Positions 2,730-63,790 of a stretch of 64,000 nucleotides of DNA are shown here, piece after piece. Under the pieces are notes generated by a model. That model ran no database searches. It saw only the letters and a program-made list of their open reading frames with translations, and was not told the origin of the DNA. The DNA lies in contig JACRFK010000003.1 in assembly GCA_016217925.1 (NCBI GenBank), positions 78,925 through 142,924 of the forward strand, in the 5' to 3' direction. Positions within the stretch are counted from its first letter, which is position 1. Each line of letters opens with the position of its first letter. The stretch comes from Candidatus Kaiserbacteria bacterium. GTDB taxonomy: Bacteria > Patescibacteriota > Minisyncoccia > Phycocordibacterales > UBA2100. The position numbers were made by a program, and so were the translations under genes.

Positions 2730-3185
2730 ATGGCGGAACGACCGAATAGTTGGATACCGAAGATTGTTTCGAGTGGATTGGGTGCCCCAAAAGACGAAGT
2801 AGCAAAACCGAATACGTTGGCCGGAGGCGCTGTTCAGGGCGCTGATGCACAACCTGCCGAGTTGACTGATGAAGCGATGCTGGCAAGAGACATTGCTTAT
2901 GTCTCCGCAAACAAAGAGCGTGTGATGCAAATGGGCAAGAGAGTCGGGGAAATTGTGAGATTCATTCTCGATCTGAGGGATTTCTCCGAAAAGGACGAAA
3001 CTATTGCGTTACGGATTAAGAACATGCCCCGTATGGAACTTGCTGACGTTGCGGCGCATATCTTGGATAGTAATGAACTTCAGTGGCAAAAAGATCCAAC
3101 GTTTTATATGACAATCGTTCGCCACGGTGGCGCTCGAATGGAAAGATTGAAAGAGATAGCAGCGCGACCACGTCCAACTGAGTAG
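2730..3185 (+). CDS. Hypothetical protein
   Basis: 151-aa ORF with typical codon usage and no recognisable motif. Confidence 0.4.
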   Translation: MAERPNSWIPKIVSSGLGAPKDEVAKPNTLAGGAVQGADAQPAELTDEAMLARDIAYVSANKERVMQMGKRVGEIVRFILDLRDFSEKDETIALRIKNMPRMELADVAAHILDSNELQWQKDPTFYMTIVRHGGARMERLKEIAARPRPTE

Positions 3186-3403: not shown

Positions 3404-4039
3404 CCTATGTACAAGGAGAGAATTCGGGCGGTACTCTCCCCTCTCGAGCGCAAAATTTTTTCCAAACTCGCGACAGCAAAAAAAATTCAAGATTTTTTGG
3501 ACAAACTTCCGATAAATTTTGAACTTCGCGGCGAGACGTACATGTCGCCGCGGCGGCTTTTGCGCGAGCATACTGCACATTGTTTTGAGGGGGCCCTTTT
3601 GGCTGCCGCGGCTTTTGCGTATCACGGACAGCGGCCGCTTTTGTTGGACCTCCAGACGCTGCCCTCCGACGAGGATCATGTCGTAACGCTTTTTAAAGAG
3701 AACGGGCTTTGGGGCGCTATCAGCAAGACCAATCACGCGATTCTCCGCTATCGCGACCCTATCTACCGGACAGTACGCGAGCTAGCGATGTCGTATGCGC
3801 ACGAATACGTGTTGGAAAACGGCAGGAAATCTATGCTCGCGTATTCGAGGCCGTATGATCTCCGGCAGTTTGCGCCGGAGCGTTGGGTGACGGAAGAAGA
3901 AGATCTCGTATGGCTCGTCGATGCGCTCGATGATTCTCGCCACTCCCCTATTGCCCCGAAAAAATCTATGCGCACACTCCGGCCTGCATCAAAAATAGAA
4001 TTGCGGGCATTGGAAATCGAAGAGTGGAAAAAACGTTAA
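3404..4039 (+). CDS. Transglutaminase-like (papain-fold Cys/His) domain protein
   Basis: AHCFEGALLAAAAFAYHG resembles the TGase-core Cys motif (G.C.EFA.L...LR). A downstream DHVVTLF His and Asp are present. There is a TATACT -10-like hexamer just upstream. This is a low-confidence family call. Confidence 0.45.
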   Translation, partial: PMYKERIRAVLSPLERKIFSKLATAKKIQDFLDKLPINFELRGETYMSPRRLLREHTAHCFEGALLAAAAFAYHGQRPLLLDLQTLPSDEDHVVTLFKENGLWGAISKTNHAILRYRDPIYRTVRELAMSYAHEYVLENGRKSMLAYSRPYDLRQFAPERWVTEEEDLVWLVDALDDSRHSPIAPKKSMRTLRPASKIELRALEIEEWKKR

Positions 4040-5349
4040 GGAAGGTACGCCATGGGGTTGAGGAATCCGGCCGGAGGCGTAATGGGAATGGTTGCTCGCG
4101 AACATGCGGACGTCCTCTTGGTCGCTTCGCCGAAGGTCAGGATTTTGGTCACGGCTGTCACGTACACGCTCAGGTGGAGGTGCGGCCCGGTGGCGTATCC
4201 TGTAGCTCCGACGTTGCCGATTATTTGTCCGGTCGCCACGCTCTGACCTTGCACCACAGAAATTTGTGAGAGGTGCCCGTAGAGCGTCGAGAGGCCGTTC
4301 AGGTGCTTTATCATGATCCACTTGCCGGCTGAGTAGCAGCCTTTATAGAGGTCGGTATTTCCTGTGGCCCACACGGTACCCGAGAGAGCCGCTTTGACCG
4401 GCGTGCCGATAGGAGCGCCCATGTCGATGCCATTATGGCCTTTGCCATTGTAAGCGCCGCTTTTTGCAAAGTCCGATTGCCCGAAGGTTTGTGTCAGTCG
4501 GATTTTGTCGAGCGGCCACTTAAGAATGCCCCTTCGCGCTGTGAGGATTTGAGAAGGATCAACATTCTGCAGGTACTGCTCCTTGAGGTCGTTGAGTGCG
4601 GCTTCGAACGCTGTTTTTCCGGCAATTTTCTGTGCCAATATCGCTTGGTATGCGGATTCTTGGGATTTTGTCTGTGCCAATAGATCGCTCTGCGCCTTTT
4701 TTTGCGCATTCAACGAGCCCTGTTGGGCAACGAGAGTGTTCTGCTGAGCGAGCAGCTCGGCGCGTTTCTCTTCCGTTTTTTTCTTTACTTCAGCGAGCGA
4801 TTGTTTTTCCTCTGCGAGTTTGGCAATCTGCTCGTTGATAGCCCCTTGGAGCGTTTGGTATGAATCCATTTCGCGCCAGGTGTCTGCAATATCATCGGAA
4901 GCGAGTACCTGAACGGCAAGCGACGTTTCGTCCGACTCATTCATTTGCCGGAACGACTCCGCGAGCCCGGCGGCGTCAATATCGATGGAGCTTTGCTTTA
5001 CCGCGATGCCTTGCGCAAGCTGTTTGATTTGCAATTGCGTCGAGCTGATCTTGCTTTTCGTCGAAGCAATGGACGCGGCGCTTTTTTTGAGCAGCAGGTT
5101 CAGTTCGTTGAGGTCGTTCTGAAGGCTTTTCTTTTTGGTGCCGACGGCATCGAGTTGTACTTGGTATTGAGCGATCTCCTTGTCGAGCTCGGCTATCTGG
5201 GTGTTGTGGGCGTCGATGAGGCCTTGTATTTCTGCGGATGTCGGAGCGGTGGTCGTGCTTTGTGCCCACGACGCAAGTGGAAAAAGAGCCAGGGCACATG
5301 CGATCACGCCGACCGATAGCGTGGCCGCTCCTCTTATTCCCGCATTCAT
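4036..5349 (-). CDS. Secreted coiled-coil M23 (LytM) family peptidase, EnvC-like
   Basis: Signal peptide, long Q/K-rich coiled coil, C-terminal M23 motifs HNGIDMGAP...GHLHLSVY. Confidence 0.85.
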   Translation of the reverse strand: MNAGIRGAATLSVGVIACALALFPLASWAQSTTTAPTSAEIQGLIDAHNTQIAELDKEIAQYQVQLDAVGTKKKSLQNDLNELNLLLKKSAASIASTKSKISSTQLQIKQLAQGIAVKQSSIDIDAAGLAESFRQMNESDETSLAVQVLASDDIADTWREMDSYQTLQGAINEQIAKLAEEKQSLAEVKKKTEEKRAELLAQQNTLVAQQGSLNAQKKAQSDLLAQTKSQESAYQAILAQKIAGKTAFEAALNDLKEQYLQNVDPSQILTARRGILKWPLDKIRLTQTFGQSDFAKSGAYNGKGHNGIDMGAPIGTPVKAALSGTVWATGNTDLYKGCYSAGKWIMIKHLNGLSTLYGHLSQISVVQGQSVATGQIIGNVGATGYATGPHLHLSVYVTAVTKILTFGEATKRTSACSRATIPITPPAGFLNPMAYLP

Positions 5350-20830: not shown

Positions 20831-21283
20831 CTATTCAATAAGACCAAGCACCTCGTCCATCTCACCCACGGTTTTCCAGGGGTGGTCGGCTTCGATAGCG
20901 GGTTCGAGATCCGCGAATTTTCCGCGCTTGAGCCAGATAGTGCGCATTCCGCACTGGTTTCCGCAGCGGATTTCTTTGTGCAAGTGGTCGCCGACGACAT
21001 ACATCTGTTTGGGGTGTACGTCGGCCCGCCTCAAGATCTCGAAGAAGAGCGTCGGGTCTTTCCGCTCTACGAAGAACGATTCGGTAAAGAAGTCCTTGAC
21101 ACCCAACTCCTCAAGGAGCTGGGGCCGGCTTTCGTCGGCCTTTGAAACGAGATACAGGGGCACCGCACGGGCACGCAAAGTATCCAGTACCGCGCGAGCG
21201 CCCGACAGCATACCGCCCGTTTCCGGGTCGTAAATGGTCCTATTAAAATCGAATATCACGGCGATATCGCCTTTAGAGTTCAT
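20831..21283 (-). CDS. HAD-superfamily phosphatase (small, 150 aa)
   Basis: Motif I VIFDFNRTIYD, motif III K (VSKAD), motif IV VVGDHLHKEI. Confidence 0.7.
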   Translation of the reverse strand: MNSKGDIAVIFDFNRTIYDPETGGMLSGARAVLDTLRARAVPLYLVSKADESRPQLLEELGVKDFFTESFFVERKDPTLFFEILRRADVHPKQMYVVGDHLHKEIRCGNQCGMRTIWLKRGKFADLEPAIEADHPWKTVGEMDEVLGLIE

Positions 21284-26412: not shown

Positions 26413-27516
26413 TTACAATCCTTCTTGTCTCAACTTCTCGATGAGTTCGCGCGCATGCCTCGAAAGCTTTTTTGGGAATTCGATATCCACACGTACCAAT
26501 AAATCGCCGCGGGCGCGACCGTGCGGTACGCCTTTGCCGCGTACCCGAATGACTTCGCCGTGAGCGATGCCCGGCTCTACGGTAAACATTTCGTCGCCGT
26601 CGAGCGTCTGTACACGGTACTCACCTCCGAGAAGTGCGTCGGAAAGTTTAATCGGGAGCGAAGTGACGAGGTTATTCCCCTCGCGTGAGAATTTTGCGTC
26701 GGATTTCACGTGCAATTTCACGTACAGGTCGCCCGGCGTAGCGCCCGGAGCAGCCTCACCTCGTCCCGGCATACGTATCATCTCTCCGTCCTCCACGCCG
26801 GAAGGCACAACGATGTGTATCTCTTCCTCGCGTTTGCGCACGCTTTCGCCACGGCACGCCTCACAGACCGTTTCGGGTATCTGACCTTTTCCGTGGCAGC
26901 GCGAGCACGGACGCGCCGACGTAAACGTCCCGAAAAATGAATTGCGTGACTCGCGAATCTCGCCTTTGCCGTTGCAGTTGGAACACGTGATGAGCTTCGA
27001 GCCTTTTTTTGCGCCGGAGCCGGCACAGGTGTCACATTGGCTCGTCTTGGTGAGCAGCACGCGGCGCTCGGCCCCGAATATTGATTCGCGGAAGGCAAGC
27101 TCTATATCTATTGAAATGTCGCGTCCCCGCCTCGTACGGGCCTGTCCGCCGCCGAATACGTCGCCAAAAATATCGCCCAAATCGAACTCAAATTGCTGCC
27201 CTCCGAAGGAGGGTCCGCCTCCGGCGGAAAAATTGGAGAAATCGAAGCCGCCGAATCCGCCTTGTCCTCCGAAGGAGGATCCACCTCCGGCGGACGGCCC
27301 CCCGCCTCCGGCGAAGGTCTTGCCGTAGGTATCGTATTCAGCGCGCTTCTTTTTATCGGAGAGTACCGAGTACGCCTCGCTCACCTCTTTGAATTTTTTC
27401 TCGTCGCCGCCTTTTTTATCGGGATGCAATTTGTGCGCCAGCTTTCTGAAAGCGGATTTGATTTCTTCTTCCGTCGCCGTCTTCGCGACGCCTAAAATAT
27501 CATAATAGTTTTTCAT
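26413..27516 (-). CDS. dnaJ: Chaperone DnaJ
   Basis: J-domain with HPD (KLHPDKK), a G/F-rich region, and four CxxCxGxG zinc-finger repeats. Confidence 0.9.
27199..27228. repeat. Diverged copy of the 30-bp GGS-encoding double-hairpin element (in the dnaJ G/F region)
   Basis: ccctccgaaggagggtccgcctccggcgga encodes [10 protein letters not shown] on the minus strand. Confidence 0.4.
27265..27294. repeat. Diverged copy of the 30-bp element (in the dnaJ G/F region)
   Basis: tcctccgaaggaggatccacctccggcgga encodes [10 protein letters not shown]. Confidence 0.45.
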
Positions 27517-27644: not shown

Positions 27645-29543
27645 TCATTCCTTTTTCGGTTCCTCAGGCGGTTTCTGTTCGTCTTTCGGCGGTTCTTGTC
27701 CTCCGGAGGAGGATCCGCCTTCGGCGGACGGGGGGGTTTGCTGATTTTTGCTCATCGCTTCGCCTATCGCACTCATGGCGGTGGAAAGTGCTTCGGCAGC
27801 GGATTTGATTGCCGCTGCGTCAGTACCGGCTCGAGCCGCCTTGGCGGCTTCGATCTTTTCCTGGACGTTCTTCTTGATATCCTCGCTCACCTTATCTCCG
27901 TGCTCGCGGAGTGCTTTTTCGGCTGCGTAGACGATTTGGTCGGCTGCGTTTTGGGCCTCAACCACATCCTTTTTCTGTTTGTCCGCCTCGGCGTTCACCT
28001 CGGCATCTTTACGCATCTTTTCAATATCGGCCTCCGAGAGGCCGGAGCTACCTTCAATGCGAATGGACTGCTCCTTGTTCGTGGACTTGTCTTTGGCCTT
28101 TACGGTAAGTATGCCATTTGCATCAATGTCGAATGAGACCTCCACTTGGGGCATACCGCGCGGCGCCGGCGGGATACCGTCGAGGTTGAAGCGCCCAAGC
28201 GACTTATTGTCGCCCGCCATCGGGCGTTCGCCCTGCACGACGTGAATTTCAACGGACGGTTGATTGTCGCTCGCCGTGGAAAACGTCTGCGAGCGCGAGG
28301 TCGGAATGGTCGTATTGCGTTCGATGAGCTTGGTCGCCACACCACCCATCGTCTCGATGCCGAGCGAAAGCGGAATGACATCAAGGAGGAGCACGTCTTT
28401 GACATCACCCTGCAAAATGCCGCCTTGGATAGCTGCACCGATGGCCACGACTTCGTCGGGATTCACACTCAAGTTCGGTTTTTTGCCGAAGAATTCCTCT
28501 ACAGCCTTCTGCATAGCCGGCATGCGCGTCTGGCCCCCAACGAGAACGACTTCGTTGATATCTCCGACCTTGAAAGGCGATGCTTCGACGGCGCGCTTGG
28601 TGATGGTCATGGCACGGTCTAAAAATTCACGCGTAAGCTCTTCGAGCTTCCCCCTCGTCATCTTGATGAGCAAGTGCTGCGGGCCGGCGTCGGTCGAGGT
28701 GATGAACGGGATGTTTATCTCCGTCTCAAGTGCGGTGGAGAGCTCAATCTTTGCCTTTTCCGCAGCTTCGTCGAGCCGTTGGCGAGCGAGCGGGTCCTTA
28801 CTCACATCAATGCCAGATTCCTTTTTGAACTCATCGGAAATCCAAGTCATTATCTTTTGGTCGATATCCCGCCCGCCCAGGTGTGCGTCACCGTCTGTAG
28901 AGCGCACTTCGATAACGTCGTCACCGACTTCAAGTACCGAGATGTCGAACGTACCGCCGCCGAAATCGAAGACCGCTATTTTTTCGTTCTTCTTTTTGTT
29001 GAATCCGTATGCGAGAGCTGCCGCCGTCGGCTCGTTGATGATGCGCTTCACATCAAGGCCTGCGATTTTGCCTGCGTCCTTCGTCGCCTGACGTTGAGAG
29101 TCGTTGAAGTACGCGGGTACGGTGATGACGGCCTCCGTGATGGTCTCTCCCAGTCGCGCCTCGGCGTCTTGCTTTAGCTTCTGCAGTATCATCGCGGATA
29201 TCTCCTCGGGGCGGTACCATTTATCCGCCATTTTTACTTCAATACCGCCGTTTGCGGACTTTTGCGTTTCAAATGAGACGGCGGCGCGATCCTTTGCGAC
29301 CGCGGGTTCGTCGAACGTGTGGCCGATAAAGCGTTTTATCTGGTATACCGTGTTCTTTGGGTTCGTTACTCCCTGTCGTTTGGCAAGGAGGCCGACAAGT
29401 CGCTCTGACGTTTTACCGACAGCAACGACCGACGGAGTCGTGCGGGCGCCCTCTGCGTTCTCGATTATCTGCGGCTCACCGCCTTTCACCACAGCAATGG
29501 CGGAGTTGGTCGTGCCGAGGTCTATACCTAATATCTTGCTCAT
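27645..29543 (-). CDS. dnaK: Chaperone DnaK (Hsp70)
   Basis: [19 protein letters not shown]...DLGGGTFD... Start set at MSKIL. The C-terminal tail carries the [10 protein letters not shown] insert. Confidence 0.9.
27699..27728. repeat. 30-bp GGATCC-centred double-hairpin element, in-frame in the dnaK 3' end
   Basis: tcctccggaggaggatccgccttcggcgga. The same 30-mer occurs again at 31179. Confidence 0.8.
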
Positions 29544-31172: not shown

Positions 31173-31559
31173 TTATTTTCCTCCGGAGGAGGATCCGCCT
31201 TCGGCGGAAACGAATTCAATGCGTGCGGCTTCACCCACGCGCTTCCCTACTCTGCCGAGGTTAACGATGCGTGTGTAGCCGCCTGCTCGTTTTGCGTAGC
31301 GCGGGGCGTATACATCGTGAAGCTTTTTCACCACATCATGAGCACCGCCCATGCGCGTTTCGATGACGCGGCGTGACGCGAGTGTGTTCTTCTTGCTCAT
31401 CGAGACCATCCTCTCGACGAACGGGCGGAGTTCTTTTGCCTTTGCGATAGTGGTCGTAATTCCCTCGTGTAGTACGAGCGAACGCGCGAGACTGCGCAGA
31501 AGTGCCGTCCGTTGCCCCCTCTTACGTCCCAATGTTCTGTTCTTCTTGTGATGCTGCAT
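31173..31559 (-). CDS. rplQ: 50S ribosomal protein L17 (with [12 protein letters not shown]-terminal extension)
   Basis: MQHHKKNRTLGRKRGQRTALLRSLARSLVLHEGITTT. The last 11 codons come from the 30-bp element. Confidence 0.85.
   Translation of the reverse strand: MQHHKKNRTLGRKRGQRTALLRSLARSLVLHEGITTTIAKAKELRPFVERMVSMSKKNTLASRRVIETRMGGAHDVVKKLHDVYAPRYAKRAGGYTRIVNLGRVGKRVGEAARIEFVSAEGGSSSGGK
31179..31208. repeat. 30-bp GGATCC-centred double-hairpin element, in-frame at the extreme 3' end of rplQ
   Basis: tcctccggaggaggatccgccttcggcgga, 30/30 identical to the dnaK copy. Confidence 0.8.
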
Positions 31560-38051: not shown

Positions 38052-40028
38052 TTACACGGTCAACACCGCCTTGATGCGGCGGATGCCTGCCGCGACCGCT
38101 TCCTCTTTCTGAATTTTGAATGTGCCGCCCTCTCCTATCTCACGTGTGTTCCCGACGTGTGGGCCGCCGCAGAATTCTATCGAGAACGCTTTGTCGAATT
38201 GCGGGTCGGTGGCCGTCGCCCCTTTTGGTCCGAGCGAGTACACCGAGACCATGTCGGGATACTTTGCACCGAATTCGTGCTCGGCGCCGAGTTTCTCTGC
38301 CTCCTCTTTGGGCAAGGTCGAGCGTATCATCGGCAGTCCTTCTTGTATTTTTTCGTTGACGATGCGTTCCACCTCCTGTAGCTGTTCGGGTGTCATTTTG
38401 GCGCCGTACGAGAAGTCTATACGTAGACGCTCTTGTGTGATGTTGCTACCGCGCTGTTTTATCGAAGGGCCAAGCACTATTTGCAAGGCCTTGAGGAGCA
38501 GGTGGTGCGCCGTGTGCAGGCGCGTGGTCTTTTCGGACTGGTCGGCGAGTCCCCCTTTAAACTTTTGCTCACTCCCCGCGCGGGAGAGTTCGCGGTGTTT
38601 CTTCATCGCCGCAGCGAACCCGTCCTCATCCACGTCAATACCGCGCTCGTGCGCCAATTCGAGCGTCATCTCAAAGGGAAAACCGTAGGTCGTGAAGAGG
38701 AGAAAGGCATCGTTACTCGCGATGTGGCCGGCCTTTGCCACCTTCTCGAATTCCTTCATGCCGCTTTCGAGGGTGTGTGCGAATTGTTTTTCCTCTTTCC
38801 ATATCTCGCTCGTGATAGTTTCGTACGCCTCTTCGGAGCCGAGCTCGGGGTATGCCTGCTTGTACTTCTCGATGAAAGACACCGCACAGCGCACGAGCAT
38901 GCTGTCCGCGGCCTCACCATTCTGTATTTCGAGTTTCTGCGCGTGTTGCGCGGCACGGCGGATGAGGCGGCGCAATACATATCCGCGGTCGGTGTTGGCC
39001 GGCCGCACACCATCGGCGAGCATGAATGTCGCGGCGCGCATGTGGTCCGCGACGATGCGGTATGAGCGCTGGTACCGCTTGTCCTCGTACTCCTTGCCTG
39101 AGAAATGAATGAGGAGTCCGATGACGTCGGCGAAGACATCAATAGCGAAGACGTCGGGGTTGTCCTGCGCGGCTGCGGCGATGCGTTCGAGCCCGCCGCC
39201 GAAGTCGACATTAGCCTTTGGTAAAAGCTTAAATACTTTCTTTCCGCCGGAGGCGGATCCTCCTTCGGAGGAGATGTACTGCATAAAGACGGAATTACCA
39301 ATCTCGAGGAACCGTCCGCAATCGCAATTGGGGTGGCACTCGGCGCCGAATTGCGGGTCGTGAGGCGTGCCGAAGTCATAAAACACCTCTGAGTCCGGCC
39401 CGCCCGGCTCCCCTGCAGGCATGTTTTCGGGGACTCCCGCGCGGCTCCACCAATTTTTCTTGGCATCGTAGTAGAAGATGCGTCCGCCTTGCATGCCGAG
39501 GCGGTAGCCGTCGGCTTCCGGACCTATTTCAACTATCTTTGCGTCGATTCCTTTGCTCTCAAACAGTGTTTTCCAAATTTCGGCAGACTCAGTATCCTTA
39601 GGGACACCGTTTTTTTCATCGCCGATAAATGCGGTCACATACAAATTCTTCGGGTCGAGACCTATCTCGCTCGTCAAGAATTCAAAGAACCACGGCAGCT
39701 GCTCACGCTTAAAATAATCGCCGAGCGACCAATTGCCGAGCATCTCGAAAAATGTCGTGTGGCGGTTGTCGCCCACTTCTTCGATATCTTCAGCGCGGAA
39801 ACTTTTCTGGCTATTTACCAAACGATTGCCTTTTGGATGCGGCTCGCCGAGAAGATACGGCACGAGCGGCTGCATGCCGCTACCGGTGAAAAGTGTCGTC
39901 GGGTCGTTCTGGGGTACGAGCGGCGCGGAAGGAATTATGGTGTGCCCTCTTGTCTTTCCGCCGGAGGCGGATCCTCCTCTGGAGGAGAAAAATTCCAGAT
40001 ACTTCGTGCGTATCTCGTTGATAGTCAT
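38052..40028 (-). CDS. alaS: Alanyl-tRNA synthetase (short form, catalytic plus editing domains) carrying two 10-aa element insertions
   Basis: N-terminal EIRTKYLEFF....GH..IPSAPLVPQNDPTLLFTGSGM. Editing-site HTAHHLL and CGGPHV motifs. 658 aa. Confidence 0.9.
   Translation of the reverse strand: MTINEIRTKYLEFFSSRGGSASGGKTRGHTIIPSAPLVPQNDPTTLFTGSGMQPLVPYLLGEPHPKGNRLVNSQKSFRAEDIEEVGDNRHTTFFEMLGNWSLGDYFKREQLPWFFEFLTSEIGLDPKNLYVTAFIGDEKNGVPKDTESAEIWKTLFESKGIDAKIVEIGPEADGYRLGMQGGRIFYYDAKKNWWSRAGVPENMPAGEPGGPDSEVFYDFGTPHDPQFGAECHPNCDCGRFLEIGNSVFMQYISSEGGSASGGKKVFKLLPKANVDFGGGLERIAAAAQDNPDVFAIDVFADVIGLLIHFSGKEYEDKRYQRSYRIVADHMRAATFMLADGVRPANTDRGYVLRRLIRRAAQHAQKLEIQNGEAADSMLVRCAVSFIEKYKQAYPELGSEEAYETITSEIWKEEKQFAHTLESGMKEFEKVAKAGHIASNDAFLLFTTYGFPFEMTLELAHERGIDVDEDGFAAAMKKHRELSRAGSEQKFKGGLADQSEKTTRLHTAHHLLLKALQIVLGPSIKQRGSNITQERLRIDFSYGAKMTPEQLQEVERIVNEKIQEGLPMIRSTLPKEEAEKLGAEHEFGAKYPDMVSVYSLGPKGATATDPQFDKAFSIEFCGGPHVGNTREIGEGGTFKIQKEEAVAAGIRRIKAVLTV
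39243..39272. repeat. 30-bp double-hairpin element, in-frame in alaS (encodes [10 protein letters not shown])
   Basis: tccgccggaggcggatcctccttcggagga. This is the opposite orientation to the dnaK and rplQ copies. Confidence 0.8.
39957..39986. repeat. 30-bp double-hairpin element, in-frame in the alaS N-terminus (encodes SSRGGSASGG)
   Basis: tccgccggaggcggatcctcctctggagga. It interrupts the otherwise conserved AlaRS N-terminal block FF..GH. Confidence 0.8.
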
Positions 40029-40635: not shown

Positions 40636-41931
40636 ATGAGGCGATACTATGCGCTGACGATGAAATACGATATCCACACACTTAAAAACGGACTGCGGGT
40701 CGTGCTCGTCCCGATGCCGACTACACAGACGGCCACGGTCGTCGTGATGACGGGCACCGGCTCGCGATATGAAAATGCGCACGAGAACGGCCTCGCACAT
40801 TTCTTGGAGCACATGTTTTTCAAGGGCACGAAGAAGCGTAAGGGCGCCCGCGAAATCAGCGAAGAGCTCGACGGCATCGGTAGCTCCTACAACGCCTTCA
40901 CCGCCAAAGACCGCACCGCCTATTACGCCAAGGTGAGCGCAGGCTACCTCGATACCGCGCTGGATGTGATAAGCGACATCTTCCTCAACTCCACGCTCCC
41001 CGGCAGGGAGATAACCAAAGAGCGCGGGGCCATCATTCAGGAGATTGATATGTACGAAGATATGCCGATGCGCACTATTGATAACGTCTTTGATGCCCTC
41101 ATTTTCGGCGCGGAGCACCCGCTCGGCCGCACGATACTCGGGCCGAAGGAAAATATCCGCACATTTTCGCGTACGGATTTCTCCACATACCTCAAGAGAA
41201 ACTACACCCCGGCCAACACCATCGTCAGCATCGCGGGCTCGTTCTCGACGCCGAAAGTCTTGGCGAAGATAAAGAAGGAATTCGGACGCCTCAAGAAGGC
41301 CGAATCCCCCGCCCTCGTGCCTTTCATCGGCACTCAGGAAGCTCCACGCATCTCTATAAAGGAGAAAAAGACCGACCAGACCCAGCTCATGCTCGGCTTG
41401 CCCGCGTACCCGTACCTGCACAAGGATGAATACGCCCTCGAAGTGCTTGCCTCCCTTTTGGGCGGGGGAATGAGCAGCCGACTTTTCCTCGAGGTGCGCG
41501 AGAAGCGCGGCCTCGCCTATTCCGTACACGCCTGGGCAGAGAAATATCCCGACACCGGCTACTTCGCGGTACAGGCCGGCGTGGAGCACGGAAAGTTGGA
41601 AAAGGCGGTCGAAACGATTCTCGCCGAGTTCCGTAAAGTGAAGAAGACGAAAGTCTCGGCAAAAGAGCTCGCGAAAGTGAAGGCAAACCTCAAAGGCACG
41701 ATGACCCTCGCGCTCGAAACTAGCGGCGCGATAGCCCAGCATGCGGCATCGTCGCTGGTGAGCATCGGAAAGATACGGCAATTGGAGGAGATTATGAAAG
41801 GGGTAGACAAAGTCACCGCCATTGACATCCAGCGCGTAGCAAAAGACATCCTCCAGACAGGAAAACTCAACCTGGCCATCATCGGCCCGCATTTGCAGAA
41901 AGAGCAACTTCTAAAACTCTTGCGCATATAA
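40636..41931 (+). CDS. M16 family zinc peptidase (insulinase/pitrilysin-like)
   Basis: Inverted zinc motif HFLEHMFFKGT (HxxEH) plus the downstream E of M16. Confidence 0.8.
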   Translation: MRRYYALTMKYDIHTLKNGLRVVLVPMPTTQTATVVVMTGTGSRYENAHENGLAHFLEHMFFKGTKKRKGAREISEELDGIGSSYNAFTAKDRTAYYAKVSAGYLDTALDVISDIFLNSTLPGREITKERGAIIQEIDMYEDMPMRTIDNVFDALIFGAEHPLGRTILGPKENIRTFSRTDFSTYLKRNYTPANTIVSIAGSFSTPKVLAKIKKEFGRLKKAESPALVPFIGTQEAPRISIKEKKTDQTQLMLGLPAYPYLHKDEYALEVLASLLGGGMSSRLFLEVREKRGLAYSVHAWAEKYPDTGYFAVQAGVEHGKLEKAVETILAEFRKVKKTKVSAKELAKVKANLKGTMTLALETSGAIAQHAASSLVSIGKIRQLEEIMKGVDKVTAIDIQRVAKDILQTGKLNLAIIGPHLQKEQLLKLLRI

Positions 41932-41984
41932 CAGTAGACGTGTATAGAGTCTCGGGCGAAACACTTACGCGAGGGAGCATCGCA

Positions 41985-42350
41985 ATGACTGATAGGAAGC
42001 GACTGTACAACCTCGCGCGTGTTCGCAACGCGGGGCAAATGGCCGAGATGGAGCGCTTCGAGGCAGCTGGTATCTGTATGTTCTGTCCGGAAGGGCTTGG
42101 ACCCGCAGACGTGCCAATCGTCACGCAAGGAGAGCGCTGGATTATAGCCCGCAACAAGCATCCCTATGAGGGCACGGCGCTGCACTACATCGCGATTTAT
42201 CGCGTGCACGTGCAATCTTTTAGCGAGGTCGCGGGTGAAGCTTGGCCGGAACTTTTCAGGCTTTTCGCTGAACTCGTGGGTCCAACTTGCTCGTTCGTTA
42301 TGGCTGTGCAAGTCGGACTTGCTCATCTTCAGCTTCTGAGTTCGAGCTAA
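41985..42350 (+). CDS. HIT-superfamily-like protein
   Basis: GICMFCPEG...W.IARNKHPYEGTALHYIAIYRVHV resembles the GalT/Ap4A-phosphorylase HIT branch. The His triad is degenerate. Confidence 0.35.
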   Translation: MTDRKRLYNLARVRNAGQMAEMERFEAAGICMFCPEGLGPADVPIVTQGERWIIARNKHPYEGTALHYIAIYRVHVQSFSEVAGEAWPELFRLFAELVGPTCSFVMAVQVGLAHLQLLSSS

Positions 42351-42412
42351 CTTGACATATCGGTTTTGCGACGTAGAGTCTTGATAGTTTCCTAGGAGCA
42401 CTGGCTCCGCAT

Positions 42413-42877
42413 TTGAGGATCTTTCCCATGCAAGACAGCCTAGCGTCGAAGCTGGCGGAGTTGACCGCGGAAGCGCGTAAGAAATTTCCGTCTGTAGAGC
42501 CCCTGGACGAAGCTCGCGAGATAGAGCAAATCCAGGCTCTCTGCCAAAAACTACCCGATATGCTGATGGACGCGGCGCGTCGCGGCCAGACCCGATTCGA
42601 CATCATGGTCATTCAGCCTCGGCACCAAGCGGGCATGTTCACGTGGTACATGTACTCGCCCTTGATCGGCCCACAAGTCGACAAAGCGATGGTCGAGTTG
42701 AAAGGCGCCGCAGCTACCATGGTGACGTGGATGAAGGCGCAGGGTTTGCGACCCGGTATTCACCATGTCAGGCATTGCGAAAGTCATGACGGCATGTCGA
42801 CCATGTGGTGGGACTACACTTTAAGCGCGCACTGGCCGCGTGCAGTTCCCGCCAAGAAAGCAGTCGCTGCGGCCTGA
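42413..42877 (+). CDS. Hypothetical protein
   Basis: 154-aa ORF. Confidence 0.35.
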   Translation: MRIFPMQDSLASKLAELTAEARKKFPSVEPLDEAREIEQIQALCQKLPDMLMDAARRGQTRFDIMVIQPRHQAGMFTWYMYSPLIGPQVDKAMVELKGAAATMVTWMKAQGLRPGIHHVRHCESHDGMSTMWWDYTLSAHWPRAVPAKKAVAAA

Positions 42878-42958
42878 CCAAAACGACCCCCCTTTGCGGG
42901 GACGAAGAGCCAAACCTTCGTCTCGTGCGAGGGGGCGGCTTTTTACAACCAATCGAGG

Positions 42959-43016
42959 GGTTTTGTTGTGGCTCGCTAGATACTCGTTTGTTTTGCTGAA
43001 GGGTTTGGAGCCGGAG
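42959..43016. repeat. Direct repeat copy 1, an orphaned duplicate of the ung 3' coding end
   Basis: Its reverse complement translates to SGSKPFSKTNEYLASHNKTPRL, compared with ung FGSKPFSKTNAYLVEHNKKPIDWL. About 50 of 57 nt are identical to 43652-43708. Confidence 0.7.
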
Positions 43017-43020
43017 TCGC

Positions 43021-43416
43021 TTATTCTTTCCGCTTCAAGTCCACCTCTGCTTTTTGCATATCAAACTTTACGACAAAGTGCTCGAAGAATCCGGTCTGAC
43101 CAACGACACCGTAATTGGATCCGCCAGCGACAAGCGGAAGGAACCCAGCTTGTATGTTGTACGACCAGCCACCGACCTCAATAGTCACGGGGTGGATAAA
43201 GTACGTCGCTGTTTGCCCGGCGATACCTCCGACAAGCGCCGGAGTTCCTTTTTCGACTTCGATCCCTAAAGCGGATGCAACTTGCTCATCGAAAATGCAA
43301 CTGTCCGCGCCAGAATCTACGAGGACGCTGTAGGAAATTGAACGCCCATCATGCTTGATCTTTATCGGTATGACTGGCCGTGAATGAGCACCATATCGAA
43401 GATACGGGAATTTCAT
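43021..43416 (-). CDS. Retropepsin-like aspartic protease (clan AA)
   Basis: VLVDSGADSCIF contains the D-S/T-G-A active-site motif. 131 aa. Confidence 0.6.
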   Translation of the reverse strand: MKFPYLRYGAHSRPVIPIKIKHDGRSISYSVLVDSGADSCIFDEQVASALGIEVEKGTPALVGGIAGQTATYFIHPVTIEVGGWSYNIQAGFLPLVAGGSNYGVVGQTGFFEHFVVKFDMQKAEVDLKRKE

Positions 43417-43616
43417 ATCCCATACCCAACGTACGTTATATCTTCTTTCGGCATGCGCATCATGATAGGATCTTTACACCCTTTCTTCTTGGCGTCCTCG
43501 AGAGCTTCCTTGAGAGTTTCGCCAGCTCCGACAACAGTGGTCTGGTCCTCTGCAAGCCCCACCCACATGCCGGCATACTTCTTTTGTGCTTCCGTCAAAT
43601 CTATTTCCATATACAT
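43413..43616 (-). CDS. Hypothetical 67-aa protein, translationally coupled to the protease
   Basis: ATGA overlap with the downstream protease gene. Confidence 0.4.
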   Translation of the reverse strand: MYMEIDLTEAQKKYAGMWVGLAEDQTTVVGAGETLKEALEDAKKKGCKDPIMMRMPKEDITYVGYGI

Positions 43617-43633
43617 GCATTATAACAAAGATG

Positions 43634-44317
43634 CTACAGCCAATCAATCGGCTTTTTGTTGTGCTCAACTAGATACGCGTTCGTTTTGCTGAAGGGTTTG
43701 GAGCCGAAGAATTTGGTGGCGGAAAAGGGCGAGGGGTGGGCGGATTCGATTACGAGGTGCTTGGTGCGGTCTATATGTGCGCCTTTCTGCTTGGCGTAGT
43801 TGCCCCAGAGGATGAAAACGAGATGCTCGCGCTCCTCGGAGAGCTTGCGAATGACCGCGTCTGTGAATTCTTCCCAGCCCTTGCCTTGATGCGAGCCGGC
43901 TGTTCTCGCGCGAACAGTTAACGTTGCGTTGAGTAGCAAGACGCCTTGCTTGGCCCAATCCTCTAAACTACCACCCTTCTTCGCCAAGGCTTCGAAGGGC
44001 AAAGAACAATCTGCTGAAAGTTCTTTGAATATATTCTGCAGCGACGGCGGGAGCGGCACGCCCTCACTCACCGCAAAGCACAAGCCGTTGGCTTGCTGCG
44101 GGCCGTGGTACGGGTCCTGGCCGAGGATGACGACTTCCACCTTGTCGAAGGGGCACAAGTCGAAGGCGCGGAAAATATTCTTCGGCGCGGGGTAGACGAT
44201 GGCGTGCTGATACTCCCCCTTCACAAACTCCCGCAGCTTGGTGAAATACCCCTTGCCAAACTCGTCCTGCAGCACCCTCTTCCACGATACCTCGATCTTT
44301 ACGTCTTTTTCTGTCAT
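43634..44317 (-). CDS. ung: Uracil-DNA glycosylase, family 1
   Basis: GQDPYHGPQQANGLCF water-activating motif and HPSPFS C-terminal motif. Start set at MTEKDV. Confidence 0.85.
   Translation of the reverse strand: MTEKDVKIEVSWKRVLQDEFGKGYFTKLREFVKGEYQHAIVYPAPKNIFRAFDLCPFDKVEVVILGQDPYHGPQQANGLCFAVSEGVPLPPSLQNIFKELSADCSLPFEALAKKGGSLEDWAKQGVLLLNATLTVRARTAGSHQGKGWEEFTDAVIRKLSEEREHLVFILWGNYAKQKGAHIDRTKHLVIESAHPSPFSATKFFGSKPFSKTNAYLVEHNKKPIDWL
43652..43708. repeat. Direct repeat copy 2 (the functional 3' end of ung)
   Basis: Overlaps the last ~19 codons of ung. Confidence 0.7.
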
Positions 44318-44456
44318 ATGGGCAGTATACAAAACATCCGGCCTTTGAGGGTTATGCACCCGCGGGTTCCAGCCCCCTCGAAAAGCCTCTCCTGTTGTGG
44401 TATACAAAAGCGGGCGAAGGCCCTTTTTATTATTCTGATTATCTAACAGTGATTGC

Positions 44457-63715: not shown

Positions 63716-63718
63716 ATG

Positions 63719-63790
63719 TGGACCAGCGGGGGATCGAACCCCGGACCTCCTCATTGCAAATGAGGCATTCTACCACTGAACTACTGGCCC
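63719..63790 (-). tRNA. tRNA-Ala (anticodon UGC)
   Basis: Reverse complement GGGCCAGTAGTTCAGTGGTAGAATGCCTCATTTGCAATGAGGAGGTCCGGGGTTCGATCCCCCGCTGGTCCA. It has the G3:U70 Ala identity pair, T-loop GTTCGATCC and a 7-nt anticodon loop TTTGCAA. Confidence 0.85.

Follow-up and report, generated by a model that had tools for sequence, protein, structure and literature searches.

The 3' end of ung, the gene for a family-1 uracil-DNA glycosylase, occurs twice in a 64-kb stretch of DNA from Candidatus Kaiserbacteria bacterium (contig JACRFK010000003.1 of assembly GCA_016217925.1; the whole stretch is referred to here as the window). One copy is the live end of the intact gene and the other is a broken end downstream, and genes for a small DUF5678 protein and a retropepsin-like aspartic protease lie between them. 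This arrangement probably arose by single-crossover (Campbell-type) integration of an integrase-less cassette that carries a functional gene end. A ~0.69-kb cassette comprising an ung 3' end, a 17-nt leader, and the DUF5678 and protease genes would have entered by one reciprocal crossover within the last ~80 bases of ung. The cassette-borne end (copy 2) would now complete ung, and the end that the host gene had before, together with its stop codon and terminator, would have been displaced 0.7 kb downstream and be decaying there (copy 1). Cassettes of this family appear to have occupied the ung site repeatedly in Kaiserbacteria-like members of the candidate phyla radiation (CPR). Other small, toxin-antitoxin-like cassettes appear to enter the same site, giving rise to stacks with an ung-end copy at the border of every unit.

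Anatomy of the ung locus

The locus comprises the following features, in window coordinates.

43634..44320, minus strand: ung, family-1 uracil-DNA glycosylase, intact, 228 aa (NCBIfam ung equivalogs and Pfam UDG)
43634..43709, minus strand: repeat copy 2, the live ung 3' end, last ~25 codons plus TAG (repeat scan and alignment)
43619..43647, minus strand: promoter-like site for the cassette, with -35 TTGATT at 43647-43642, a 17-nt spacer, and a TG-extended -10 TATAAT at 43624-43619
43413..43616, minus strand: DUF5678 small protein, 67 aa from ATG 43616 (Pfam PF18929, 30 bits, cutoff 23.2)
43021..43416, minus strand: predicted retropepsin-fold aspartic protease, 131 aa (Asp_protease_2, PF13650, E = 6.5e-10)
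42943..43016, minus strand: repeat copy 1, apparent orphaned former ung terminus, TAA at 42943-42945, one frameshift
42886..42938: back-to-back terminator-like hairpins, minus strand at 42903-42886 and plus strand at 42918-42938 (terminator scan)
41940..42877, plus strand: two lineage-specific open reading frames (ORFs; 136/121 aa and 154/149 aa), without a family match
40636..41931, plus strand: M16 peptidase gene, apparent ancestral convergent neighbour of ung (Pfam domains, tblastn synteny)

The ung ORF matches full-length equivalog models (NF003592, E = 2e-94, 315 bits, cutoff 162; TIGR00628, E = 2e-81, 273 bits, cutoff 186) and ends in copy 2, which bears out the first-pass annotation of this DNA in taking copy 2 as the real 3' end of the gene. 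The Ung C-terminus reads ...FGSKPFSKTNAYLVEHNKKPIDWL*. An exact look-up of the Ung protein found no entry. The direct repeats that the annotation had seen bracketing the insert were recovered both by repeat scan and by alignment, with some correction of the figures. The ung-end pair is one of four direct-repeat families of ≥32 nt in the window-wide scan, which places the copies at 42961-43016 and 43654-43709 with a start-to-start spacing of 693. The pair is real, but the earlier ~57 bp at ~88% identity becomes 56 nt at 86% identity ungapped; the copies are likewise separated, but by 618 nt of non-repeat insert and not by 640 bp. Gapped local alignment widens the pair as far as the stop codons (42944-43016, 73 nt, against 43635-43709, 75 nt), and the copies share a 24-nt identical block. 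Further repeat copies were sought by searching the window with one copy (blastn-short), and the sole match above noise was the partner copy (38 nt, 94.7%, E = 5e-12).

Copy 1 begins 4 nt past the protease stop. It translates to DSGSKPFSKTNEYLASHNKTPRL in one frame and, past the frameshift, to PLDWL*, ending at the TAA. It aligns to the Ung C-termini of relatives, in line with the earlier view of it as an orphaned ung terminus, and it also holds the former stop; it is thus a complete but broken Ung C-terminus. The terminator-like hairpins sit ~40 nt past copy 1, in the interval before the convergent gene, and are probably the original ung terminator region. Copy 2 has its TAG stop and leader sequence in common with the cassette-linked ung end of L084, a contig of the sister lineage described below. 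An independent Logan assembly contig (L001, from SRR12113407) is 100% identical over 4169 nt spanning the whole structure, so that the structure is not a window-specific misassembly.

Empty sites and a variable spacer in relatives

Loci of ung were compared, 80 from species-representative genomes and 80 from metagenomes. Empty sites, which the first-pass annotation had proposed looking for, are present in L002, L003 and L004, the closest relatives with uninterrupted ung loci (Ung 80%, 77% and 74% identical to that of the window). In these three, ung converges directly on the M16 peptidase gene, with 97, 37 and 6 nt, respectively, from stop to stop. In the window the same interval is 1.7 kb. 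The two lineage-specific ORFs, which lie between the M16 gene and the orphan ung end, are absent in the empty-site relatives. By tblastn synteny, M16 was traced at the ung loci of L002, L003, L004, L098, L100, L178 and L082. The gap between the two genes is filled with unrelated small ORFs in L100 (341 nt) and L102 (291 nt), and in L098 a 639-nt gap holds an 87-aa ORF preceded by a 24-nt remnant of an ung end. The short spacers in L002-L004, together with the unrelated fillers elsewhere, imply that the content of the spacer in the window is derived and that the ung-M16 spacer is a variable hot spot.

Two further observations on sequence downstream of ung may be recorded here. In L098, the closest full-length ung relative, copies of CCTCCCGAGGTTTAAC at 1086-1119 and 1594-1640, one of them a hairpin, flank the 87-aa ORF and the ung-end remnant. 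In L064, a Bacteroidetes metagenome-assembled genome (MAG), ten tandem 14-nt units with the ung stop region (CGATTGGTAACAT) lie directly after ung (4662-4800).

The same cassette, and others, at ung

The DUF5678-protease pair lies directly after ung in a sister lineage as well, on contigs L082-L089 from several groundwater samples. In L083-L089 the protease is 93% identical to that of the window and the ung-end repeats are 81-85 nt long and 92-93% identical. In L082 and L084 the pair is the first unit of a stack. Read in the orientation of ung, the stack begins with the live end (copy A), a TATAAT leader, DUF5678 and the protease; a full copy B, a promoter and a 112-aa membrane ORF follow; then come a 37-nt partial copy, a TATAAT leader, and a 102-aa ORF with a HicA toxin gene; and finally a full copy C with TAA and a 175-aa gene, after which M16 is reached. 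In the L082-L085 stacks the units thus stand in tandem at the ung end, with ung-end copies at their borders and without integration genes.

Strains differ in what the stack contains. To the right of copy A, L082 and L086 are 99.7-99.9% identical to the other contigs; to its left the sequence differs, and the join falls at the repeat boundary. The left flank holds a ParB-like gene in L082 and a different HicA gene in L086. We read these flanks as further cassettes that, in some strains, were inserted after ung and ahead of the DUF5678 cassette. The ParB-like gene was considered as a lead to a larger element and rejected, as its homologues occur in ordinary chromosomal contexts without integrases.

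A third lineage (L178-L181; GCA_964351105.1) has a protease 69%, a DUF5678 protein ~47% and an Ung 78% identical to those of the window. Its gene order is ung, DUF5678, protease, an intact orphan ung end (79 nt, 89% identical), three genes, and M16. An unrelated MAG contig, L018, has two further ung-end copies after ung (102 nt and ~350 nt) with a DUF6273 gene between them. Among 166 ung loci scanned, such repeats were confined to the loci of the window lineage and L018, apart from the 24-nt remnant in L098; L178-L181, which also carry ung-end repeats, were obtained after that scan. The first-pass annotation had noted that relatives with the same arrangement and a repeat diverged beyond recognition would point to an ancient tandem duplication. 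This is not what the relatives hold: the same site is occupied in two other lineages, and the repeats within each genome are 89-93% identical.

A second target at alaS, and more distant relatives

In the lineage of contigs L182-L187, where the protease is 67% identical, alaS follows the pair directly, its ATG overlapping the protease stop. Here 68-nt direct repeats flank the pair; they begin 6 nt ahead of the alaS ATG and reach codon 21. The two copies in L182, an orphan upstream (3039-3106) and a live one (3710-3777), are 78% identical, and L184 has the same repeat pair. The arrangement is the mirror image of that at ung, so the anatomy is not tied to one sequence. The window is one instance of a recurrent phenomenon with multiple cassettes and multiple targets. 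L182 itself opens with ung fragments (84-345), first residues 18-47 and then, in a different frame, residues 189-228; a 143-aa gene and M16 come after them. This points to an orphan end of ung, or a broken ung gene, here too.

In L196 (79% identical) the pair has a non-ung context and is flanked by an exact 16-nt direct repeat, GCAAGGATTTTCAGGT, at 587-602 and 1301-1316. The 14-nt core of this repeat, AAGGATTTTCAGGT, follows copy B in the L082-L089 stacks (L082 1972-1985) and was found in no other fetched locus; the 16-nt motif is absent from the window. The P0005 loci were considered as a case of one identical cassette in many contexts. Pairwise comparison showed that they are mostly one locus with strain variation (an M48 peptidase gene, a 166-aa gene, DUF5678 and the protease gene), without a flanking repeat; they were rejected as such a case and left out of the evidence for cassette hopping.

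Upstream of another DUF5678-protease locus, a 166-nt repeat unit, mostly with a 47-aa ORF, separates successive small genes (L091 1953-2118, 2806-2971, 3584-3749 and 4088-4253; L094 2771-2914). Its presence varies by strain (L094 versus L093), and it looks like another cassette-boundary repeat. In L190 (1843-3225) a distant pair, whose DUF5678 ORF was called at 121 aa, above the usual length, lies ~1.4 kb from a reverse transcriptase gene of the diversity-generating retroelement (DGR) type and a bAvd gene.

Evolution of the repeat copies

Five pairs of live and orphan gene ends differ by 17.5 synonymous and 26.5 non-synonymous changes (Nei-Gojobori counts). The pooled live-versus-orphan ratio of non-synonymous to synonymous differences per site (pN/pS) is 0.37, with an excess of synonymous change (p = 9e-4, one-sided binomial). 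Within the conserved EIRSKYLEFFEKRG block of the L182 alaS pair, every one of the 7 differences is synonymous. So are the L178 changes in conserved Ung codons (S, T, H), and one site in L178 has the consensus proline in the orphan but not in the live copy. The orphans in L084, L178 and L018 retain open frames and correct stops. This synonymous bias indicates that both copies diverged mostly as working coding ends, as would be expected if one of them came on a cassette from another genome; it would be unexpected under in-place copying and drift.

For this reason it is very unlikely that the second copy was made in place, as a long target-site or repair-synthesis duplication at the time of insertion, with the orphan decaying neutrally since. 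The direct repeats do immediately abut the insert, and the L196 module has its exact 16-nt repeat, as such a process would leave. On the other side stand the low pN/pS, the conserved Ung and AlaRS residues kept in the orphans, the open orphan frames with correct stops, and the lack of any transposase among the sequences searched. Repeats of 68-85 nt also far exceed any target-site duplications known to us.

Within genomes, the synonymous differences per site (pS) between repeat copies are 0.11-0.24. Between the window and the L083 lineage, orthologous codons have pS values of 0.64 (protease), 0.45 (DUF5678) and 0.49 (ung 3' end). The two copies in L178 also have lineage-specific codon choices in common. 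The low within-genome pS and these common codon states indicate that the duplications are younger than the lineage splits, so either insertion recurs within each lineage or the copies have been homogenised.

Homogenisation is central to another history, in which a single ancient insertion was inherited vertically, its copies were kept alike by gene conversion, and empty sites arose by deletion between repeats. The occupation of the same site in three lineages fits this history, as does the rough tracking of host genes by cassette divergence (nucleotide identities of 82% in the protease and 86% in the ung 3' end). A clean empty site would also be recreated if the direct repeats recombined with each other. 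We nevertheless consider it unlikely. Differences between copies are spread along the whole repeat, and no long converted tracts are visible in the alignments. The bias towards synonymous and variable positions is not predicted by neutral decay of an orphan plus conversion. Strain variants with different cassettes joined at repeat boundaries point to ongoing turnover, and at alaS, its second target, this cassette family shows the same anatomy.

A 3' coding end that is repeated almost identically, in a form that no longer codes, downstream of the gene also recalls a DGR, whose template and variable repeats would here act on the Ung C-terminus. CPR genomes are rich in DGRs, and the distant cassette relative in L190 adjoins a DGR reverse transcriptase and bAvd. 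The probability of this explanation is negligible: mismatches are not concentrated at adenines in either copy, which refutes it, the orphan has a stop codon and a frameshift, and there is no reverse transcriptase among the window ORFs scanned.

The cassette genes

Between the repeats there are just the two genes that the first-pass annotation had described, a 67-aa ORF, which matches DUF5678, and a 131-aa protease with the motif VLVDSGAD; the protease start overlaps the DUF5678 stop by 4 nt. The small ORF is present at the length first given, but GenBank (HY971_00825, Candidatus Kaiserbacteria bacterium) annotates it at 65 aa, from a second ATG at 43610. The pairing of the two genes is kept in all of the 25+ loci examined. 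Both genes are under strong purifying selection relative to the sister lineage (omega, the ratio of non-synonymous to synonymous substitution rates, is 0.03 for the protease and 0.13 for DUF5678). The protease has ~65 cluster-level relatives, and the few with source names are all Patescibacteria MAGs.

The protease scores 40 bits against PF13650 (cutoff 24.3). Across 21 homologues the catalytic D34-S35-G36 is invariant and A37 nearly so. Its VGGIAG aligns with the IGGIGG of the HIV flap, and the active site of HIV-1 protease also aligns. The top Foldseek matches to an AlphaFold2 model (mean predicted local distance difference test score, pLDDT, 94.9) are the HIV-1, FIV and EIAV proteases, with probability 1.0 and template modelling (TM) scores of up to 0.68. 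The window protease is thus predicted to have the clan AA retropepsin fold. For DUF5678, structure searches found neither a solved relative nor a confident fold match. The literature describes neither a DUF5678 function nor retropepsin-antitoxin pairs.

The pair has traits of type II toxin-antitoxin systems, namely two small, co-directional, overlapping genes that are mobile, patchily distributed, and stacked with HicA cassettes. There is also a weak PADLOC match to the defence candidate PDC-M08B (E = 4e-6). Given the gene layout, the HicA cassettes in its company and this match, the pair is most likely, by analogy, a selfish addiction or defence-type module. The protease would most likely be an active, putatively dimeric enzyme that is controlled by, or acts on, the small protein encoded upstream.

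A promoter scan gave one strong minus-strand candidate ahead of these genes, with 10 of 12 matches to the consensus. Its -35 box lies within the ung codons I-D-W and its -10 box in the cassette leader, 8 nt ahead of ATG 43610; the ung end and the leader would thus together form the cassette promoter. The DUF5678 and HicB-like cassettes of L082 and L084 have an upstream site built in this way too. A hybrid promoter of this kind may explain why even partial ung-end copies are retained.

Search for a recombinase and for site features

The first-pass annotation had noted the absence of an integrase, and this held on a wider search. The window repeats enclose none (just DUF5678 and Asp_protease_2), and neither recombinase, transposase nor reverse transcriptase domains were found in ~55 window ORFs scanned across the 64 kb. 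The cassette proteins of the stacks likewise yielded none of these domains. The genes around ung encode a saccharopine dehydrogenase-like protein, a HAD protein, an Ogt-like DNA-binding protein and a PD-(D/E)XK protein; IntI is not among them. Rfam and tRNA scans near the locus were empty, the sole tRNA in the window being at 63718-63790.

The repeats themselves were examined for hairpins, inverted-repeat cores and dif-like sites. DNA folds of eight repeat copies scored z = -0.96 to +1.58 against shuffles, that is, no better than shuffled sequence, and attC-like folding was rejected. An inverted-repeat core (6-nt seed, spacing ≤12 nt) was not found in the repeats. Sites of dif or core type were rejected as well, there being no dif-like 11-6-11 imperfect palindrome in or beside the repeats. 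No motif is common to the ung and alaS repeats.

A parent element was sought in several collections. Two patterns of the ung-end DNA motif had no match in IMG/VR viral contigs; the protease profile found no relative in viral contigs, and tblastn against phage and plasmid collections gave no match. No integrase-bearing element at the same attachment (att) site was seen among the 166 ung loci, the viral contigs or the phage and plasmid collections, the closest lineage being represented by short contigs only. In the literature we found nothing on ung as an attachment site.

These searches bear on the view that the locus is what remains of a larger element with an integrase, inserted site-specifically at the 3' end of ung, such as a prophage, an integrative and conjugative element (ICE) or an integrative and mobilizable element (IME). 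Two cargo genes and the att sites would have been left behind, and the relic would be immobile or movable only in cis with the help of a related intact element, in the manner of a cis-mobilizable element (CIME). Tyrosine integrases usually target the 3' or 5' ends of housekeeping genes, and insertions with flanking direct repeats at such ends are standard for them, for example among streptococcal ICEs (PMC4701971). CIMEs are described as integrase-less, att-flanked relics that accrete in tandem (PMC5704250), a description which the att-like repeats without an integrase and the observed stacks match; a ParB-like gene is present at one left flank. Such an origin still seems improbable, since the same minimal two-gene unit, with the same boundaries, recurs in three lineages at 46-69% protein identity, and five or more further cassettes at the site are just as pared down, none with an integrase. 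The ung-end motif and the protease are absent from the viral contigs, the protease is absent from the phage and plasmid collections, and the homologues of the ParB-like gene have ordinary chromosomal settings without integrases.

How the cassettes might move

Integration of cassettes that carry their own gene end is the reading we favour, and cassettes without a recombinase gene would depend for their movement on a function supplied in trans. The lengths of homology at gene ends are 24, 37, 68, 79-85, 102 and ~350 nt. The homology always reaches the stop codon (ung) or begins just before the start codon (alaS), presumably because only gene-terminal homology keeps the target intact.

Two routes deserve most weight. 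The first, which we rate at a little under an even chance, is host homologous recombination between gene-end homologies of 25-100 nt. Recombination of one repeat with the other would excise a circle with one ung end, which could re-integrate into any ung end, possibly after DNA uptake. The varied homology lengths, the second target and the absence of site features favour this route. The second, an unlinked recombinase acting on a specific site, is somewhat less probable; it is favoured by the near-constant 5' limit of homology at TTCTTCGG and by the 16-nt repeat of L196. Other routes take up the remainder. The first-pass annotation had proposed site-specific integration with regeneration of the target end. 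The insertion and the regenerated ung end are supported. Site-specificity is one possibility: neither a recombinase nor a conserved core nor an inverted-repeat site was found, and homologous recombination through gene-end homology explains the data about equally well.

Several points weigh against integration by either route. Homologous recombination has to contend with the position of the 5' limit of ung homology, which in several different cassettes and three lineages stays within a few bases of TTCTTCGG, as one would sooner expect of a defined site or of an ung fragment shared by descent. The repeats, at 78-93% identity with exact blocks of 14-24 nt, are also marginal substrates for RecA. 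A site-specific enzyme would have to act without a hairpin, an inverted-repeat core or a motif common to ung and alaS, and on homologies ranging from 24 to ~350 nt; a recombinase was identified nowhere in the sequences searched. Flanking repeats are missing around the more distant relatives of the pair (L188/L189, where it follows RNase III; L190; L191; the L090 group; L092), so repeats are not a constant border of the module. An excised circle, a junction read and an empty site polymorphic within one population are not among the evidence. Finally, the sequences could not settle which ung-end copy is native. A choice by stop codon and similarity to relatives was tried and was ambiguous, as the ung end linked to the L084 cassette looks like the native one in L002.

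Comparison with known mobile systems

Phages, ICEs and IMEs that integrate at gene ends share with this locus the substitute gene end, the intact target, the gene-end direct repeats, and the use of both 3' and 5' ends. The integration of e14 and phage 21 in icd of E. coli is a familiar case. Unlike them, the cassettes described here are 0.6-1.2 kb long and have no integrase, excisionase or transfer genes. Their repeats, too, are 68-85 nt long and 78-93% identical with no att-type inverted-repeat core found, whereas phages, ICEs and IMEs use short identical cores of 2-60 bp. The CIMEs resemble the locus in being integrase-less units that retain attL and attR and stack in tandem with an att or gene-end copy between units. 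They are, however, decay products of identifiable ICEs or IMEs, whereas here no parent was found and the minimal cassette is conserved across deep divergence.

Integron arrays are likewise ordered series of small, mostly promoter-poor cassettes that vary between strains, carry toxin-antitoxin cargo and have a promoter at the attachment end. They differ in having IntI by the site and attC hairpins, neither of which is seen here, where the recombination site is a coding gene end. Also comparable are IMEX elements, which exploit Xer recombinases, and pdif modules, in which integrase-less cassettes, often with toxin-antitoxin cargo, form tandem arrays and depend on a host-encoded recombinase. The present cassettes are likewise integrase-less and tandem, with toxin-antitoxin-like cargo, but their repeats are gene ends and not dif sites. 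The minimal mobile elements of Neisseria are small, strain-variable cassettes at a fixed intergenic site with conserved genes on either side, and they move by transformation and homologous recombination, with no dedicated recombinase. They do not duplicate the flanking gene end, however, whereas here each cassette carries a gene-end copy. The locus has the anatomy of a gene-end element but comes without the integrase and the parent element, and it behaves neither as an integron nor as a DGR.

Other observations in the window

Six 36-nt GC-rich palindromic elements (e.g., TCCGCCGGAGGCGGATCCTCCTTCGGAGGA) lie in the window, in frame inside conserved genes. Those in alaS yield two inserts of the GGSASGGK type in AlaRS. 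Their positions are as follows.

39239-39274 and 39953-39988: alaS
27195-27230 and 27261-27296: DnaJ ORF
27695-27730: DnaK ORF
31175-31210: sixth element

A second orphan gene-end fragment is present at 19186-19241, matched against 21217-21272 with 71% identity; it corresponds to the first codons of a HAD-like gene (GDIAAVLSVNRTMYG versus GDIAVIFDFNRTIYD). This degenerate gene start lies 2 kb from the gene, just upstream of a phosphoenolpyruvate (PEP) mutase gene; the intervening DNA holds a 417-aa ORF that belongs to no known family. The PEP mutase gene adjoins a gene for a thiamine pyrophosphate (TPP)-dependent decarboxylase-like protein (17110-19165), and the two look like a phosphonate-biosynthesis pair in a CPR genome.

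Implications

CPR bacteria (Patescibacteria) have tiny genomes, for which descriptions of mobile elements are very few. The ung locus offers a concrete and recurrent route by which these bacteria may acquire accessory and defence genes. Sub-kilobase cassettes would ride on the end of a housekeeping gene, leaving the gene intact, stacking and differing between strains, with no recombinase of their own. If the enzyme is the host's RecA, gene-end homology would by itself suffice to mobilise a selfish cassette. An unlinked recombinase would mean that there is a new pair of att site and recombinase to discover. The locus also opens a genomic way into the study of DUF5678 and its bacterial retropepsin partner, a pair not yet characterised.

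A broader reading, which is possible but which we hold only tentatively, is that Kaiserbacteria-like CPR bacteria have a cassette-exchange system in which the coding ends of housekeeping genes (ung 3', alaS 5') serve as attachment sites. Cassettes carrying a replacement end and part of a hybrid promoter would insert, stack and swap much like integron cassettes, by homologous recombination or through a recombinase supplied in trans. If this is true, it would add a new class of mobile element to a group in which very few have been described.

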